NCBI RefSeq assembly: GCF_058153355.1
Contig: NZ_CM177019.1
Length of the DNA: 64,000 nucleotides
Strand: one strand, 5' to 3'
Positions 55,201 to 61,200 of this stretch are shown here, piece by piece. A program made the position numbers. The stretch's first letter is position 1, and the number at the start of each line of letters is the position of its first letter.

Positions 55201-58200
55201 CCGCGTTATCTCGACCCCGACAGACCGTTCGGGGTGGTGGATTACGTTAATGTTCCTCGTACCATTGCGACCGTTATCTCCTCCGGTAAGGCTTCAAAAG
55301 CTGAACTGGATTCTGTCCTTGGTGTGCAGGACTTATGGGATCTGCTGGAAATAATTCATGTGGATGCCCATAACGAACAGGTGATACAGGAGAACAGAAA
55401 TGGCGCAGGTACTTGATGAGCTTGTTCTGTCCCTCGGGATTGATGACAGGGACTTTACTGCCGGGGAACAGGCAGTACATGCTGCCCTTAACCGGCTCAC
55501 GACGGTGATGGAAGGTGTCGCTGACACATTCAGTCAGGGACAGAAGAAAACCAGTGAATCACTGGAAAAAACCGGAAAAGATGCTGATAAAACGGCCCGT
55601 CGAATGGAAGATGCCGGGAAACGGGCGTCCCGTTTTTTTTCAGGGATCCGTAGCGAGATTCTGGCTCTTGCGGGTGTCAGTCTGACGCTGGGGGGGCTGA
55701 AGAACCTGGTAACAGGTTTTGCCCGTGATCTGAACCGTCTGTCCGTGGAATCCGATGCTTTTGGCATGAAGGCCAGAAATCTGGACGGATGGTTACGGGC
55801 TGCGCGGGCAAATAATGTTGATGAAGGGGAAATGTCTGGGGCATTTTCCCGGCTTGCAAATGCAAAAGCGGCCTTCAGAGCCGGAAGGTCCTTTGATCCT
55901 GTGTTACAGGATTTGTTTCAGGTTGCAGCCAGGGCGGGCATTAGTGTTGATTTAAATACTGACAGCACTGAAGCCATCATGCGCAAGCTGGCGGTTATTT
56001 TTCCGCGACTGACAAAGTCCGAACAAACGTAAGCGTCTTATCAGGACCGTCTGGCAAATTCCCGATGCTTTGGACAAAGTATCCACCACTAAATTAATAG
56101 TGGGTGATAAAAATGTCAGATATACAAAAAAATGCCTCTCCGGGAAGGCCTAAAGGGTGCCTGAATTATCCTCCTGAATTCAAACAACGACTCATAGAAG
56201 CATCATTCCAGCCAGGTGTTTCAATTTCCAGACTGGCCCTGGACAATGGTATTAATGCCAATCTGTTGTTCAAATGGCGTCAGAAATGGCGGCAGGGGAA
56301 GATAAAATTGCCATCATCAGAATCAGGCAGAGAATCTCAGTTAATTCCTGTCACTATTGATGCCCAACTCCCAACTGCTCCGGCTAATGAGCCACTGACC
56401 GCAAGACCGTCAGTAACACCGGAAATACACAGCATCTCCTGTGAGATTACGTTCAGAAACGGCACCCTTCGGTTGAACGGGGCAGTGAATGAAAATCTGC
56501 TGTCCTTGCTTATACAGGAGCTGAGACGGTGATATCTCTCCCTGCAGGTTCGCGTATCTGGCTGGTTGCAGGTATCACCGATATGCGAAATGGCTTTAAC
56601 GGCCTGGCCTCAAAAGTTCAGAACGTCCTGAAGGATGACCCGTTCTCCGGACACCTGTTCATCTTCCGCGGACGCCGGGGTGACCAGATAAAAGTGCTGT
56701 GGGCTGACAGCGACGGACTGTGCCTCTTCACCAGACGCCTGGAACGGGGCCGCTTCGTCTGGCCGGTCACCCGTGACGGCAAGGTGCACCTTACTCCGGC
56801 CCAGTTATCCATGCTTCTTGAGGGCATCGACTGGAAACACCCGAAACGAACGGAACGCGCTGGCATCCGCATATAACCCGTTGTAAAGTGAGGATATGGA
56901 CACCTCACTTGCTCATGAGAATGCCCGCCTGCGGGCACTGTTGCAGACGCAACAGGACACCATCCGCCAGATGGCGAAATACAACCGCCTGCTCTCACAG
57001 CGGGTGGCGGCTTATGCTTCCGAAATCAACCGGCTGAAGGCGCTGGTTGCAAAACTGCAGCGCATGCAGTTCGGTAAAAGCTCAGAAAAACTTCGTGCAA
57101 AAACCGAACGGCAGATACAGGAAGCACAGGAGCGAATCAGCGCTCTTCAGGAAGAAATGGCGGAAACGCTGGGTGAGCAATATGACCCGGTACTGCCATC
57201 TCCCCTGCGCCAGTCTTCAGCCCGTAAACCGTTACCTGCCTCACTTCCCCGTGAAACCCGGGTCATCCGTCCGGAAGAGGAATGCTGCCCGGCCTGTGGT
57301 GGCGAACTCAGTTCTCTGGGATGTGATGTGTCAGAGCAACTGGAGCTTATCAGCAGCGCCTTTAAGGTTATCGAAACACAACGTCCGAAACTGGCCTGTT
57401 GCCGGTGCGACCATATCGTGCAGGCTCCGGTGCCTTCAAAACCCATTGCACGCAGTTATGCCGGAGCGGGGCTTCTGGCCCATGTTGTCGCTGGAAAATA
57501 TGCAGACCATCTGCCGTTATACCGCCAGTCAGAAATATACCGTCGTCAGGGCGTGGAGCTGAGCCGTGCCACACTGGGGCGCTGGACAGGTGCTGTTGCT
57601 GAACTGCTGGAACCGCTGTATGACATCCTGCGCCAGTATGTGCTGATGCCCGGTAAAGTCCATGCCGATGATATCCCCGTTCCGGTCCAGGAGCCGGGCA
57701 GCGGTAAAACAAGGACTGCCCGGCTGTGGGTCTACGTTCGTGATGACCGTAACGCCGGTTCGGAAATGCCTCCGGCGGTCTGGTTCGCGTACAGCCCGGA
57801 CCGGAAAGGTATCCATCCACAGAATCATCTGGCCGGTTACAGCGGAGTGCTTCAGGCCGATGCTTACGGTGGTTACCGGGCGTTGTACGAATCCGGCAGA
57901 ATAACGGAAGCCGCATGTATGGCTCATGCCCGGAGAAAAATCCACGATGTGCATGCAAGAGTGCCCACCGACATCACCACGGAAGCCCTGCAGCGTATCG
58001 GTGAACTGTATGCCATCGAGGCAGAGGTCCGGGGCTGTTCAGCAGAACAGCGTCTGGCGGCAAGAAAAGCCAGAGCCGCGCCACTGATGCAGTCACTGTA
58101 TGACTGGATACAGCAACAGATGAAAACACTGTCGCGTCACTCGGACACGGCAAAAGCGTTCGCATACCTGCTGAAACAGTGGGATGCACTGAACGTGTAC

Positions 58201-61200
58201 TGCAGTAATGGCTGGGTGGAAATCGACAACAACATCGCAGAGAACGCCTTACGGGGAGTGGCCGTAGGCCGGAAAAACTGGCTCTTCGCGGGTTCTGACA
58301 GCGGTGGTGAACATGCTGCGGTGTTGTACTCGCTGATCGGCACATGCCGTCTGAACAATGTGGAGCCAGAAAAGTGGCTGCGTTACGTCATTGAACATAT
58401 CCAGGACTGGCCGGCAAACCGGGTACGCGATCTGTTGCCCTGGAAAGTTGATCTGAGCTCTCAGTAAATATCAATACGGTTCTGGCGAGCCGCTTACGAA
58501 CAAACTGCCTACGGCAACGCGCTGGGCTTCAGTTATGCCGGACAGCAGTTTCTTGGCTCCGGTCATGCGCTGAAAGATGTGGACGAATTTACTTCCCGTT
58601 CGCAGGTTACGCCGGGGCGTATAGCGCTGGCCCGTAAGCTACGAAAAGAGCTTGTTGAGCTCGATCAGACCTGGTCCGGCATCGGGATGACGATTAGCAC
58701 CGCGTTGATGCCGTACGCGCTGAAGCTCAGCCACTGGCTGGAGACACTCGGTGACTGGATGCAGCAACATCCGGAGGAAGTGAACAGGTTTATCACCACA
58801 TTTCTGAATGACGTTGAGTCAGTGGCCTCCCTGGCGAATAAGGCTGCCGGAGAACTGGGGGGCTGGCAGAATGTCATTATTACGCTGATCGGGCTGAAAG
58901 TGGCGTCATGGGTGCGGGGGCTGACAAAAGCCCTCAGTGGCCCCGGAGGCCTTCTTTTTGCGATAACGGCGCTTTACCCGGTTGTTGACGGATTACTGAC
59001 ATCCATTGTTGGCAGGGAAAATAAGGACTGGCTGGATTCACATGGTTTTTTCTGGGCTTCAGACGGGACTTTCTTTTTCAATAAGAAAGAGATGGAGACG
59101 TATCAGACAAAACTGGATGCCGGAGAAAAGCCTGGCAACATCACCCGGGCGCAATCACCCACAGTATGGCAGCAGGGAATGCTGGATACTCAGGCTTCTC
59201 AGGCAACCGGGAGGGAAGCAGCCTTCGGTGAATCCTGGCTACAGGGTATGCGTGCGACGCAGGAAAAACTCGGTAATGCCATGCAAAACCGCCAGCGACC
59301 GACGAGGACCGGGGAAGCCCTGTTAGGCTGGCTGCAACCGAAACTGTCTCAACTGGAGGAAAAATATAACCTGCCGCCCGGACTGCTGCGCAGCGTTGCG
59401 ATCACCGAATCCCGTGGTAATCAGTTTGCCGTCTCACCTGCTGGTGCGATGGGACTGTTTCAGTTCATGCCGAAGACGGCCAGTGAATTTGGTCTGAGGG
59501 GGAACGATGCCTTTGATCCCGAAAAAGCCGCTGATGCCGCCGCGAGAAAACTTGGTGGCCTGATACGTTTTTTTCATGGCGATCTGGCTAAGGCTCTGGC
59601 GGCATATAACTGGGGAGAGGGAAATGTTCAGCGTAAGGGACTGGCTGCTGCTCCGGAGGAGACCCGCAACTATATTCCGCGGGTGCTGGCGAACCTGCCT
59701 TATCCGGGTGCGGCAATGGCCATACGGTCGCGCCATCCTGCGCCTGTATCGCAGTCCACCGTAACGGAAACCACGCATATCGGGACACTGAATGTCACCA
59801 CAACGTCGGACAATGTGAAGGGTATTACCGATGACGCACGTCGGCGTATCACGAATTCGGCGCTTGTGTCGGTTTATTCCAGCGGGGTAACAGGATGAGT
59901 TTTTCTTTCGATAATATTTCCCTGAATAACTTTTCGCTCAGTGAAAGTAACGTACTGAGTGCAGTTCGTGGCGGCGGTGTCCTGGGACTCATTAACAGTG
60001 TACTGGCACCGTCATTCGGTATTTATTACGCACGGAATGATCCGGCAGGTGCCCATCAGAAGGGTGGCAAACCTTTCTCCCCGGATTCTTTTGTTGTCGT
60101 TGAGGTGGGCGCGGAGGCTTCTGTTTCCACCGTCCCCGTGGAGCAGGGGGCTTATACCACCTTTAATAAAATCCAGAGATCGCCGGAACTGCATGTGACT
60201 TTCACTGTAGAGGGGTGGACGGCCTTTTCCGGATCCGTCCCGAACCTGACAAATTTTTCCACCACCTCGCGGACGAATGTGCTGGAAACGCTTGAAAGGA
60301 TGCGTACCACGGCAGGACTCTACGATATTGAGACGCCGGACAAGACATGGACATCCTGCGACCTTGTGAAATATGACTACCGAATGCGAAGTAATAATGG
60401 TCCGACCTTACTGACGGTTACTGCGGTATTTCAGACCGTAATGAATACAGGAGAGGTGTCAGTGGGAAGTACGGATAAGTCGTCTCCCACGGACAACGAT
60501 AAAGCAAAAGGGGCCGCATCGGTTAAAACGCAGCCAGTTACGGCGTCGGTGACACAACCGTCAGACGCTGACAGACGAAGCGCCACGAACAGGGGGATCA
60601 CCTGATGCTGGAAATTGTTTTATCTCCCGTTAAAGCCCAGCAGTTTACGGTGACACTGGGCGCTCAGGTCTGCACCATTCGCCTGAATCAGCGTACTACG
60701 GGGATGTATATCGATATCATTGTTAATGGTGAACCGTGCCTGTATGGCGTGCTGTGTCTGAATAATAACCGGATTGTCCGGTACGGATACCTGCCGTTTC
60801 AGGGGGACCTGTTTTTTACCGACACGGAGGGGAATAGTGACCCTGACTGGCGGGGGCTCGGATCCCGGTACCGGCTCTACTGGCTGTTACCTGAGGAACT
60901 GATATGAGCTACAGACAACGTAAAATAACGGTGGAGTTCACTCTTTCAGACGGACGAACGTTTGGTAATGGCCAGGGCAATATGCTGACCATTACCGACG
61001 CAAGCTGTTTTGCCAGTATTGCCGTATATGGAGGGGTGGCTGGTACACAAATCACGCTGTATATCTGGGGAATGTCACCGGCGCATATGACGAATTTAAG
61101 CTGGCGCGGTGTGTGGCGACAGGAGCAGAGTACCGCAAATAAAATGCGGCTGTGGGCCGACGGGCGGCTTATTTTTGAAGGTGATATTACTGATGCATAC

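Follow-up and report, generated by a model that had tools for sequence, protein, structure and literature searches.

A recent transposition of an IS66-family element very probably broke the tail tape-measure gene of a prophage that otherwise looks complete and whose tails were presumably lost as a result. The prophage was analyzed in a 64-kb window (the whole stretch of DNA studied, 64,000 nucleotides) and, judged by its gene content, is an element that joins lambdoid regulation to an E217/PB1-like contractile tail. The insertion and the two parts of the interrupted gene are organized as follows.

55400-56028, + strand, tape-measure gene, 5′ part (codons 1-209 and two bases of codon 210)
56021-56028, no strand, left target-site duplication GAACAAAC, 8 bp
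56029-58497, + strand, IS66-family insertion sequence, ISCro1-related variant, 2469 bp
56029-56050, left inverted repeat, starting GTAAGCG
56113-56532, + strand, tnpA, 139 aa from ATG (142 aa from a GTG at 56104)
56529-56876, + strand, tnpB, IS66 accessory protein, 115 aa
56896-58467, + strand, tnpC, IS66-family DDE transposase, 523 aa
58476-58497, right inverted repeat, starting GTAAGCG
58498-58505, no strand, right target-site duplication GAACAAAC, 8 bp
58506-59898, + strand, tape-measure gene, 3′ part (codons 211-673 and the stop codon)

The inserted element and the broken reading frame

The first-pass annotation had proposed a 2469-bp IS66-family insertion bordered by an 8-bp duplication, and both proposals hold. 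A terminus reading 5′-GTAAGCG is the hallmark of the IS66 family, and the element runs from GTAAGCG to CGCTTAC, with imperfect terminal inverted repeats (GTAAGCGTCTTATCAGGACCGT and, as the reverse complement, GTAAGCGGCTCGCCAGAACCGT) that agree at 17 of 22 positions. Between the repeats lie three consecutive genes, tnpA overlapping tnpB by four bases of the ATGA type (56529-56532), and each product exceeds the curated NCBIfam cut-off of its family: 88.9 bits against 74 for NF047595 (IS66_ISRel24_TnpA), 127.8 against 50 for NF033819 (IS66_TnpB) and 479 against 180 for the DDE transposase model NF033517 (transpos_IS66). With tnpA, tnpB and tnpC intact, the inserted element is active-looking. It is flanked at both ends by perfect copies of GAACAAAC, an 8-mer that occurs only six times within the 64 kb; the chance of an 8-bp match exactly at both IS ends is about 1.5e-5.

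RefSeq names the homologues of TnpC "IS66-like element ISCro1 family transposase". ISCro1 itself (2699 bp; found in Citrobacter rodentium, E. coli and E. marmotae) shares with the present element the three-gene layout, the GTAAGCG termini and the 8-bp duplication, and the region of tnpB, tnpC and the right end (bases 502-2469 of the element) agrees at about 97% identity with E. coli copies of ISCro1. The identity does not extend over the full 2699-bp ISCro1, because the left 501 bp, which contain a short tnpA along with the left inverted repeat, are non-ISCro1; bases 1-512 show 95.5% identity to a different, unnamed IS66-like tnpA module, and the changeover sits precisely at the tnpA/tnpB boundary. 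No full-length copy of the 2469-bp element was found among 5,426 complete E. coli genomes. In E. marmotae HT073016 both ISCro1 and IS4 are abundant (PMC6650469).

As the first-pass annotation claimed, the tape-measure frame ends on a stop codon that comes from the IS terminus, but this TAA occupies 56030-56032, and position 56028, where the stop had been placed, is the last gene-derived base. The upstream ORF (55400-56032) thus encodes 210 aa, and the 5′ part is 100% identical to residues 1-210 of intact homologues. When the IS and one repeat are deleted, a 2022-nt ORF of 673 aa is restored, reading ...RLTKSEQTAYGNALGF..., in agreement with the in-phase resumption predicted earlier. Over residues 208-673, the 3′ part and the homologue in E. 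coli FDAARGOS_943 share 99.4% identity. The sole in-frame start of the 3′ part is a GTG at 58579 (residue 235).

It is highly improbable that the repeated IS was merely misplaced in the tape-measure gene during assembly. Several copies of the IS are present in the genome, two of them within the window, and repeats often cause misassembly; however, a perfect 8-bp target duplication at the exact IS ends is not producible in this way, and the junction recurs in an independent short-read contig (Logan SRR22703080_1514), which breaks off there and codes for the 210-aa product with its IS-borne stop.

Identity and integrity of the interrupted gene

The assignment of the 673-aa product as the tail tape-measure protein is supported by gene order and by protein family matches. 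The neighbouring features and the domain on which the assignment draws are listed below.

52857-54341, + strand, tail sheath (PHROG 205 "tail sheath", E = 2e-115)
54342-54788, + strand, tail tube, directly upstream of the chaperone gene
54788-55192, + strand, G-like tail assembly chaperone, 134 aa (PHROG 1932, E = 3e-59)
55168-55174, + strand, -1 frameshift slippery heptamer T_TTT_TTC, in X_XXY_YYZ register with the chaperone frame
59353-59670, + strand, SLT lytic-transglycosylase domain, residues 493-598 (Pfam PF01464, E = 3.5e-25)
59895-64000, + strand, downstream baseplate genes, 99.5-100% identical to relatives, encoding in this interval Dit-like (236 aa), plug (100 aa), hub (289 aa), spike (225 aa) and sheath initiator (118 aa) proteins

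The order sheath, tube, chaperone (PHROG 1932), 673-aa gene, Dit-like, plug and hub places the gene after a frameshift chaperone pair and before the baseplate/hub genes, where a tape-measure gene belongs. The chaperone is 100% identical to its homologue in FDAARGOS_943; the -1 frame is open from the heptamer through a 60-aa ORF (55234-55416), and the predicted frameshift product is a 209-aa GT-like chaperone that ends at 55416 before tandem stop codons (55417-55422). The sheath matches the PDB sheaths 9b42 gp32 and E217 gp31, and the Pfam families E217_gp31_N and E217_Gp32 are recorded on homologues identical to the sheath and tube proteins. The 673-aa protein itself matches PHROGs 2276 (E = 9e-30, residues 1-607), 9570 (E = 4e-20, residues 1-463) and 8125 (E = 1e-11), all three named "tail length tape measure protein". 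In Pfam the sole match is SLT, with none to a TMP family, and the RefSeq name of the gene goes no further than "lytic transglycosylase domain-containing protein". The protein has a hydrophobic segment at about residues 352-380, and its length predicts a tail of about 100 nm (at about 0.15 nm per residue); the phage collection contained no virion from this prophage family.

The lytic transglycosylase-like motif noted earlier in the C-terminal part is the Pfam SLT domain, and its predicted catalytic residue Glu511 (AITESRG, encoded at 59407-59409), conserved in an E-S motif, aligns with the TESR glutamate of T7 gp16 (PDB 7eyb). Another match of the SLT region is to PDB 9b45 ("gp41 Tape measure protein"), which comes from a PB1/E217-like Pseudomonas myophage. 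gp41 occupies the same slot after the chaperone genes, the SLT-type domains are nearly co-located (463-580 in the 673-aa protein, 465-579 in gp41), and E217/Pa193 have homologues of the sheath, tube and hub proteins; the similarity to gp41 is confined to the SLT region, however, the lengths differ (673 against 858 aa), and the phage described here is temperate with lambdoid regulation, unlike the Pseudomonas myophage. Lysins borne on tape-measure proteins have been reviewed (PMC6116005, PMC10194240).

In all alignments made, every relative examined has the interrupted gene as a single gene. An intact 2022-bp copy with 99.6-99.8% identity is present in at least seven complete E. coli genomes, and of ten places sampled in public assemblies eight carry it intact. 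Alignment of the restored gene with 11 close, intact homologues, every one a single 2022-nt ORF, shows 3-8 nt differences per homologue and neither indels nor stop codons. Klebsiella phages, the best phage match (35% identity), carry the gene in one piece over 99% of its length, and the best-scoring PHROG, 2013 "lytic tail protein", covers residues 1-672 (E = 4e-246). It is therefore scarcely conceivable that an N-terminal tail protein and a C-terminal tail lysin are encoded by two naturally separate genes with the IS merely between them. The present sequence does contain two ORFs (55400-56032 and 58579-59898), and a few phage records (H74, H75, H79) annotate the homologous stretch as two features, but the stop codon of the first ORF lies within the IS, one in-phase ORF appears on removal of the IS and one repeat, and the profile of PHROG 2013 runs from end to end. 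We rejected the separate-genes reading, which the first-pass annotation had named as a refutation, on the strength of the 11 single-ORF homologues and of the gene in a sister strain, which is uninterrupted and 100% identical.

The empty site and the state of the prophage

An unoccupied site, which the first-pass annotation had suggested looking for in relatives, was found directly by sequence comparison in the draft assembly GCA_015332025.1. Its contig AAXEGZ010000088.1 carries an IS-free site with one copy of GAACAAAC and matches window positions 46110-56028 and 58497-64000 with 100.000% identity over 9919 + 5504 bp (15.4 kb). The two strains share the exact UbiG protein and 99.98% identity across 4.7 kb of chromosomal backbone, and a contig break of GCA_015332025.1 coincides with the same IS4 site, all of which places GCA_015332025.1 in the lineage of the source strain. 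To E. coli, the host backbone shows no more than about 94.7% identity. Since the sister is identical and IS-free and the remaining late genes in view have their full length, the insertion is, as judged from these comparisons, recent and strain-specific, the product of a single simple transposition.

The IS insertion is the only late-gene lesion seen in the window. The window ends inside the baseplate genes, cutting the baseplate J gene at 64000, and the right end of the prophage (tail-fibre genes, any cargo, attR) lies beyond it; further lesions there, or a second prophage acting as helper, are thus possible. The window holds four IS copies, among them a second IS66 copy near the early genes:

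25094-29000, second copy of the IS66 element, carrying a nested IS4 and located 242 bp upstream of N

This copy is flanked by GGATGAAG on both sides and appears, from the promoter motifs, to be located upstream of the best pL-like promoter (24971-24999). An effect of the IS66/IS4 copy on early transcription is possible.

It is conceivable, though rather doubtful, that the insertion is real but not the decisive lesion, and that the break in the tape-measure gene is one step in the decay of a prophage made defective earlier or elsewhere, whether by a lesion beyond the window or by the second IS66/IS4 insertion, near pL-N. Apart from the number of IS copies and the right end beyond the window, this is favoured by IS lesions in other genes of every close EIEC-like E. 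coli relative inspected: in FDAARGOS_943 the lysozyme gene is hit by IS600 and a tail-fibre gene by IS1, O121 201805972 has IS421 and IS600 in the sheath gene plus further lesions, and RMDEC332 has ISCro1 in the chaperone gene, flanked by the duplication CTTTAAGC. Against it, all 26 other late genes within the window, from holin to baseplate J, are full length, the early region (integrase, N, cI, cII, O, primase-helicase and Q) is present and complete-looking, the second IS66 copy interrupts no ORF of at least 50 aa, and the flanks, being 100% identical to those of the sister strain, bear no sign of accumulated decay.

The defect might also be masked by a second related prophage that gives the tape-measure protein in trans or repairs the gene, particles remaining infectious. 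Two copies of the tail module (L014 and L015) do occur in the Shigella assembly GCA_900450175.1, and the breaks of the sister-strain contig inside the portal gene and in the wedge/fibre region would fit a repeated prophage sequence; no second copy of the tail module was seen within the window, however, and we consider such masking unlikely.

Predicted consequences and comparison with known systems

In the course favoured here, one recent simple transposition brought the IS into codons 208-210 of the 673-codon tape-measure gene and left the usual 8-bp target duplication. Translation would end at the TAA in the left end of the IS and give a 210-aa N-terminal stub, and the remaining 463 codons, with the hydrophobic segment and the peptidoglycan-cleaving SLT domain, would be left without a proper start. 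Tape-measure proteins start the polymerization of tube and sheath on the baseplate hub and set the tail length, and are essential for tail assembly, as for gpH of lambda, gp29 of T4 and gpT of P2. Because of this established requirement it is reasonable to regard the prophage as tail-defective, hence cryptic or helper-dependent: it is predicted still to excise, replicate, lyse the cell and fill heads, and to build neither tails nor infectious particles. Rescue might come from a tape-measure protein provided in trans, from recombination between this prophage and a related one or, in rare cases, from precise loss of the IS by excision between the 8-bp repeats. We infer that the downstream baseplate genes are still transcribed through the IS, in which no sense-strand terminator-like site was found; a predicted Q antiterminator is encoded in the prophage.

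The finding leaves general concepts unchanged, and its value lies mainly in annotation and in the experiments it allows. Annotation should treat the two ORFs as a single, disrupted tape-measure gene, and the prophage as probably non-infectious despite its complete look. The source strain and GCA_015332025.1 form a natural isogenic pair, identical over at least 15.4 kb of flank save for the IS, which suits questions of tape-measure essentiality and of the behaviour of a tail-less induced prophage. The ISCro1-variant IS66 element would seem to be currently active in the source lineage. The prophage also belongs to an uncharacterised phage family, lambdoid with an E217-like tail, that is widespread in Shigella and EIEC as a carrier of ipaH.

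In EIEC and Shigella prophages carrying ipaH3 the gene has no IS at the site, and the EIEC copies are 99.6-99.8% identical to that described here. The EIEC prophages adjoin pphA/yebW, with ipaH3 at the right end, whereas the source prophage adjoins yfaA and a DUF1175 gene. Candidate defence genes PDC-M24/PDC-S43 and genes for five Ant-like proteins were noted in the source prophage.

Relatives of the source prophage have independent IS insertions in sheath, chaperone, lysozyme and tail-fibre genes. The insertions in the chaperone gene (RMDEC332), the sheath gene (O121 201805972) and the tape-measure gene (source strain) could form a convergent set, although it is quite improbable that they are non-neutral events that lock in a cargo-carrying prophage and spare the lytic cost. 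Were this so, the cargo would be ipaH in the relatives and PDC-M24/PDC-S43 with the five Ant-like proteins in the source prophage, and the comparison of two strains, alike in all else, of an Escherichia lineage outside E. coli would have captured a first domestication step.

The event is of a known kind, the ordinary inactivation of a prophage through IS-mediated decay. The pool of defective prophages in E. coli O157:H7 has reportedly been the topic of a classic study, and the IS-rich precedents include IS629 in defective prophages of E. coli O157:H7 and IS1, IS600 and IS911 in prophages of Shigella and EIEC. Shared with these precedents are an IS in an essential morphogenesis gene of a lambdoid prophage, a standard target duplication and an otherwise complete look. 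The source prophage differs from them in the IS66-family element, in the tape-measure gene as the target, in a host backbone about 94.7% identical to that of E. coli and in the availability of an isogenic empty site.

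Interruption of the tape-measure gene by an IS66-family element

Direct inspection of the sequence between 55400 and 59898, with a listing of its open reading frames, showed that a simple IS66-type transposition split the tail tape-measure gene of the prophage after codon 210. The insertion site comprises the following features.

55400-56032: upstream tape-measure ORF, 210 amino acids, ending in a TAA within the IS terminus
56021-56028 and 58498-58505: 8-bp target-site duplication GAACAAAC, on both flanks of the element
56029-58497: IS66-family element, 2469 bp, starting GTAAGCGTCTTATCAGGACCGT, the other end being its imperfect inverse (17 of 22 positions matching)

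When the element and one repeat were deleted in silico, a 2022-nt ORF encoding 673 amino acids was obtained, which runs across the junction ...RLTKSEQTAYGNALGF.... The first-pass annotation, which had described a 2469-bp IS, an 8-bp duplication and an in-phase resumption of the gene, was correct in all of these coordinates; it had put the stop at 56028, where the gene-derived sequence does end, and the TAA itself occupies 56030-56032. The 3′ tape-measure segment (58506-59898) is in frame with tnpC of the element (56896-58467), and only the tnpC TAA and 12 sense codons stand between them; this common frame is probably a coincidence rather than a sign of readthrough.

The possibility that the two parts are naturally separate genes is ruled out by the intact homologues. 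An uninterrupted 2022-bp gene (99.6-99.8% identity) is present in at least seven complete E. coli genomes, a single 673-amino acid gene with the SLT domain was found at 8 of the 10 sampled public loci sharing the neighbouring baseplate protein, and the homologues in distant Klebsiella phages form a single uninterrupted alignment that covers 99% of the tape-measure length. In the alignment with intact homologues (n = 11) that had been proposed as a check, 3-8 of the 2022 positions differ between the restored gene and each homologue, and neither indels nor stops occur; of the substitutions, three are found in the window alone, two of them synonymous and the third K477R. These alignments indicate that the tape-measure sequence is one gene.

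PHROG 2013, "lytic tail protein", covers residues 1 to 672 of the restored protein (E = 4e-246), and three further PHROGs also match it, 2276, 9570 and 8125, all named "tail length tape measure protein". The lytic transglycosylase-like motif noticed earlier in the C-terminal part was identified as a Pfam SLT domain (residues 493-598), in which Glu511 of the TESR motif aligns with the TESR glutamate of T7 gp16, and a match to the SLT region is found at equivalent positions of a solved structure named "gp41 Tape measure protein" (PDB 9b45). Database names for the gene reflect the lysin domain only; lytic transglycosylase domains in tape-measure proteins are already known (PMC6116005, PMC10194240), PDB 9b45 being another case. 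The gene order in the module is sheath, tube, chaperone, tape measure, Dit-like protein, plug, hub, spike, sheath initiator and baseplate J. The sheath matches those of the Pseudomonas phage E217 and of the PDB 9b45 phage series, and among the precomputed Pfam matches of identical homologues are tail parts of E217 and Pam3; the tail tube protein gave no sequence match to solved structures. The gene upstream of the tape measure encodes a chaperone with a predicted frameshift.

54788-55192: tail chaperone gene, carrying a canonical slippery heptamer, T_TTT_TTC, in correct register (55168-55174)

A -1 shift at this sequence would lead through a 60-amino acid ORF to a predicted product of 209 amino acids, the downstream part of which is annotated in RefSeq relatives as a separate 60-amino acid hypothetical protein. 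In long-tailed phages a frameshifted chaperone pair precedes the tape-measure gene. Since the PHROG matches, the gene order, the predicted chaperone frameshift and the SLT match to PDB 9b45 all agree, the tape-measure assignment was accepted; no alternative candidate exists among the long genes of the module.

Composition of the element and its second copy

Three proteins of the element exceed the NCBI curated cut-offs for IS66-family TnpA, TnpB and transposase. Bases 502-2469 (tnpB, tnpC and the right end) are ~97% identical to copies of ISCro1, which occur in thousands of E. coli records, whereas the left 501 bp (left inverted repeat and short tnpA) are not ISCro1 and show 95.5% identity to a different, unnamed IS66-like element; the switch coincides with the tnpA/tnpB boundary. 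At 2469 bp the element is shorter than ISCro1 (2699 bp; PMC6650469), which is also found in L001, a locus of E. coli RMDEC332. No full-length copy of the window element was found among 5,426 complete E. coli genomes. The window carries further insertions.

25094-29000: second IS66 copy, 99.8% identical to the copy in the tape-measure gene, with its own 8-bp duplication GGATGAAG
25213-26639: nested IS4, splitting tnpA of the second IS66 copy, 11-bp duplication TCTCCGGGAAG
14585-16011: IS4, 1427 bp, in a DUF1175 (yfaT-like) gene immediately to the left of the integrase, 12-bp duplication CCCTATGTGACC

The near-identity of the second IS66 copy and its own duplication point to a multi-copy IS that moved recently in this genome. 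The two IS4 copies are 100% identical, and draft assemblies of the same lineage have contig breaks exactly at the site of the one at 14585-16011.

The second IS66 copy is intergenic, 242 bp upstream of an N-like antiterminator gene (24507-24851, minus strand), and might have been thought to cut pL off from N. The best leftward (pL-like) promoter-like site, 24971-24999, lies on the N side of the insertion, and the copy seems to stand upstream of it. No ORF of at least 50 amino acids spans the insertion site, and no operator k-mers are common with the cI-cro region except for a single 10-nt match. For these reasons we claim no second functional lesion.

The prophage, its host and an IS-free sister lineage

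The remaining landmarks of the prophage are these.

16300-17373: integrase, at the left end of the prophage, adjoining yfaA and the DUF1175 gene
29147-30812, minus strand: three genes in the rexAB-like position between cI and the pL region
40691-40846: tRNA-Asn and tRNA-Thr, near the mosaic junction

The integrase is followed by Ant-like proteins, Abc2, SSB, Sak4, N, the second IS66 copy and the three rex-position genes, then by cI, cII, O, primase-helicase, NinB, methyltransferase, RusA, Q, the two tRNA genes, holin, endolysin and Rz. From holin to baseplate J, each of the 26 late genes that allowed comparison has its full length and shares 97-100% identity with its homologue in FDAARGOS_943, an E. 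coli relative with a homologous prophage; the window, ending at 64000, stops short of the tail fibres, any cargo and attR. The position held by rexAB in lambda is taken here by genes matching PADLOC candidate defence families (PDC-M24B, E = 7e-11; PDC-M24A, E = 5e-7; PDC-S43, E = 1.5e-41), which may form a prophage-encoded anti-phage cassette. Anti-repressor-like genes of the Ant/KilAC type are unusually many for one prophage, five in all (17654-19438, 37532-39054, 42346-42942).

Nothing close to the early and regulatory region (29009-40900) occurs in the EIEC relatives; its identity to other lambdoid prophages of E. coli is ~94%, whereas the region from holin onward (40910-64000) shows 99.6% identity to an ipaH3-carrying prophage family; by these comparisons the prophage is a mosaic. 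The chromosomal part (1-14584; inaA, nrdBA, yfaL, ubiG, gyrA, yfaA) shares ~94.7% identity with E. coli across 14.5 kb (gyrA 98.1%, nrdB 96.4%, ubiG 94.7%), a value below the usual within-species range, and the host probably belongs to an Escherichia lineage outside E. coli proper. By contrast, the late region of the prophage is 99.6% identical to the EIEC copies, and the late module seems to have been exchanged recently with the Shigella/EIEC pool. The richness of the window in IS4 and ISCro1-like elements resembles the abundance described for Escherichia marmotae HT073016 (PMC6650469), which makes E. marmotae a lead as to the host and not a result.

When the exact sequence of the restored protein, with K477R, was looked up, an intact gene for it was found in GCA_015332025.1. 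Its contig AAXEGZ010000088.1 has 100.000% identity to window positions 46110-56028 and 58497-64000, contains GAACAAAC once and lacks the IS, so that the unoccupied site for which PCR had been suggested was seen in silico. This assembly encodes the same exact UbiG protein, shares 99.98% identity with the window over 4.7 kb of chromosomal backbone and has a contig break coinciding with the IS4 site of the window. Given the empty site and the identical flanks, the insertion is, on this comparison, specific to the strain of the window and very recent. The only other source of the exact 210-amino acid truncated product was one short-read Logan contig, which ends at the junction and also counts against misassembly; the insertion was found nowhere else. 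Neither the exact junction of tape-measure gene and IS nor a gyrA 22-mer specific to the lineage had a match among the GTDB representative genomes. The sister contig starts inside the portal gene (equivalent to 46110) and ends ~1.2 kb past the equivalent of 64000, in the gene that follows the one for the baseplate wedge; its ends could reflect repeated prophage sequence or another IS in the sister strain.

Predicted consequence and comparison with other insertions

The role of the tape-measure protein is established in lambda, T4 and P2, and we infer from it the loss of the tail that the first-pass annotation had considered probable. Full-length protein would not be made, tube and sheath could not be built on the hub, and induction would be expected to yield lysis and filled heads with no infectious particles. 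The C-terminal part would at best be translated from a GTG at 58579 (residue 235), without the N-terminal third. A weak consensus scan of 55900-58700 gave no sense-strand terminator-like site and Q is present, so late transcription may continue past the IS into the baseplate genes. Rescue might come from precise excision between the 8-bp repeats, which would be rare, or from a second related prophage; one Shigella assembly holds two copies of the tail module (L014 and L015).

IS-rich Escherichia and Shigella commonly have IS elements inserted in the morphogenesis genes of their prophages. Relatives of this prophage in EIEC-like E. coli carry independent IS elements in chaperone, sheath, lysozyme and tail-fibre genes, the chaperone insertion being that of RMDEC332.

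L001 2270-4968 (equivalent to window 55157): full-length 2699-bp ISCro1 in the chaperone gene, duplication CTTTAAGC

This site lies 871 bp upstream of the insertion in the tape-measure gene, and two IS66-family insertions have thus occurred within 1 kb of tail-assembly genes in different hosts. A literature search for IS elements inserted into tape-measure genes yielded only general surveys of prophages. Set beside these cases, the finding is real, correctly read and ordinary; the features peculiar to the window are its specific allele, the variant IS and the isogenic IS-free sister.
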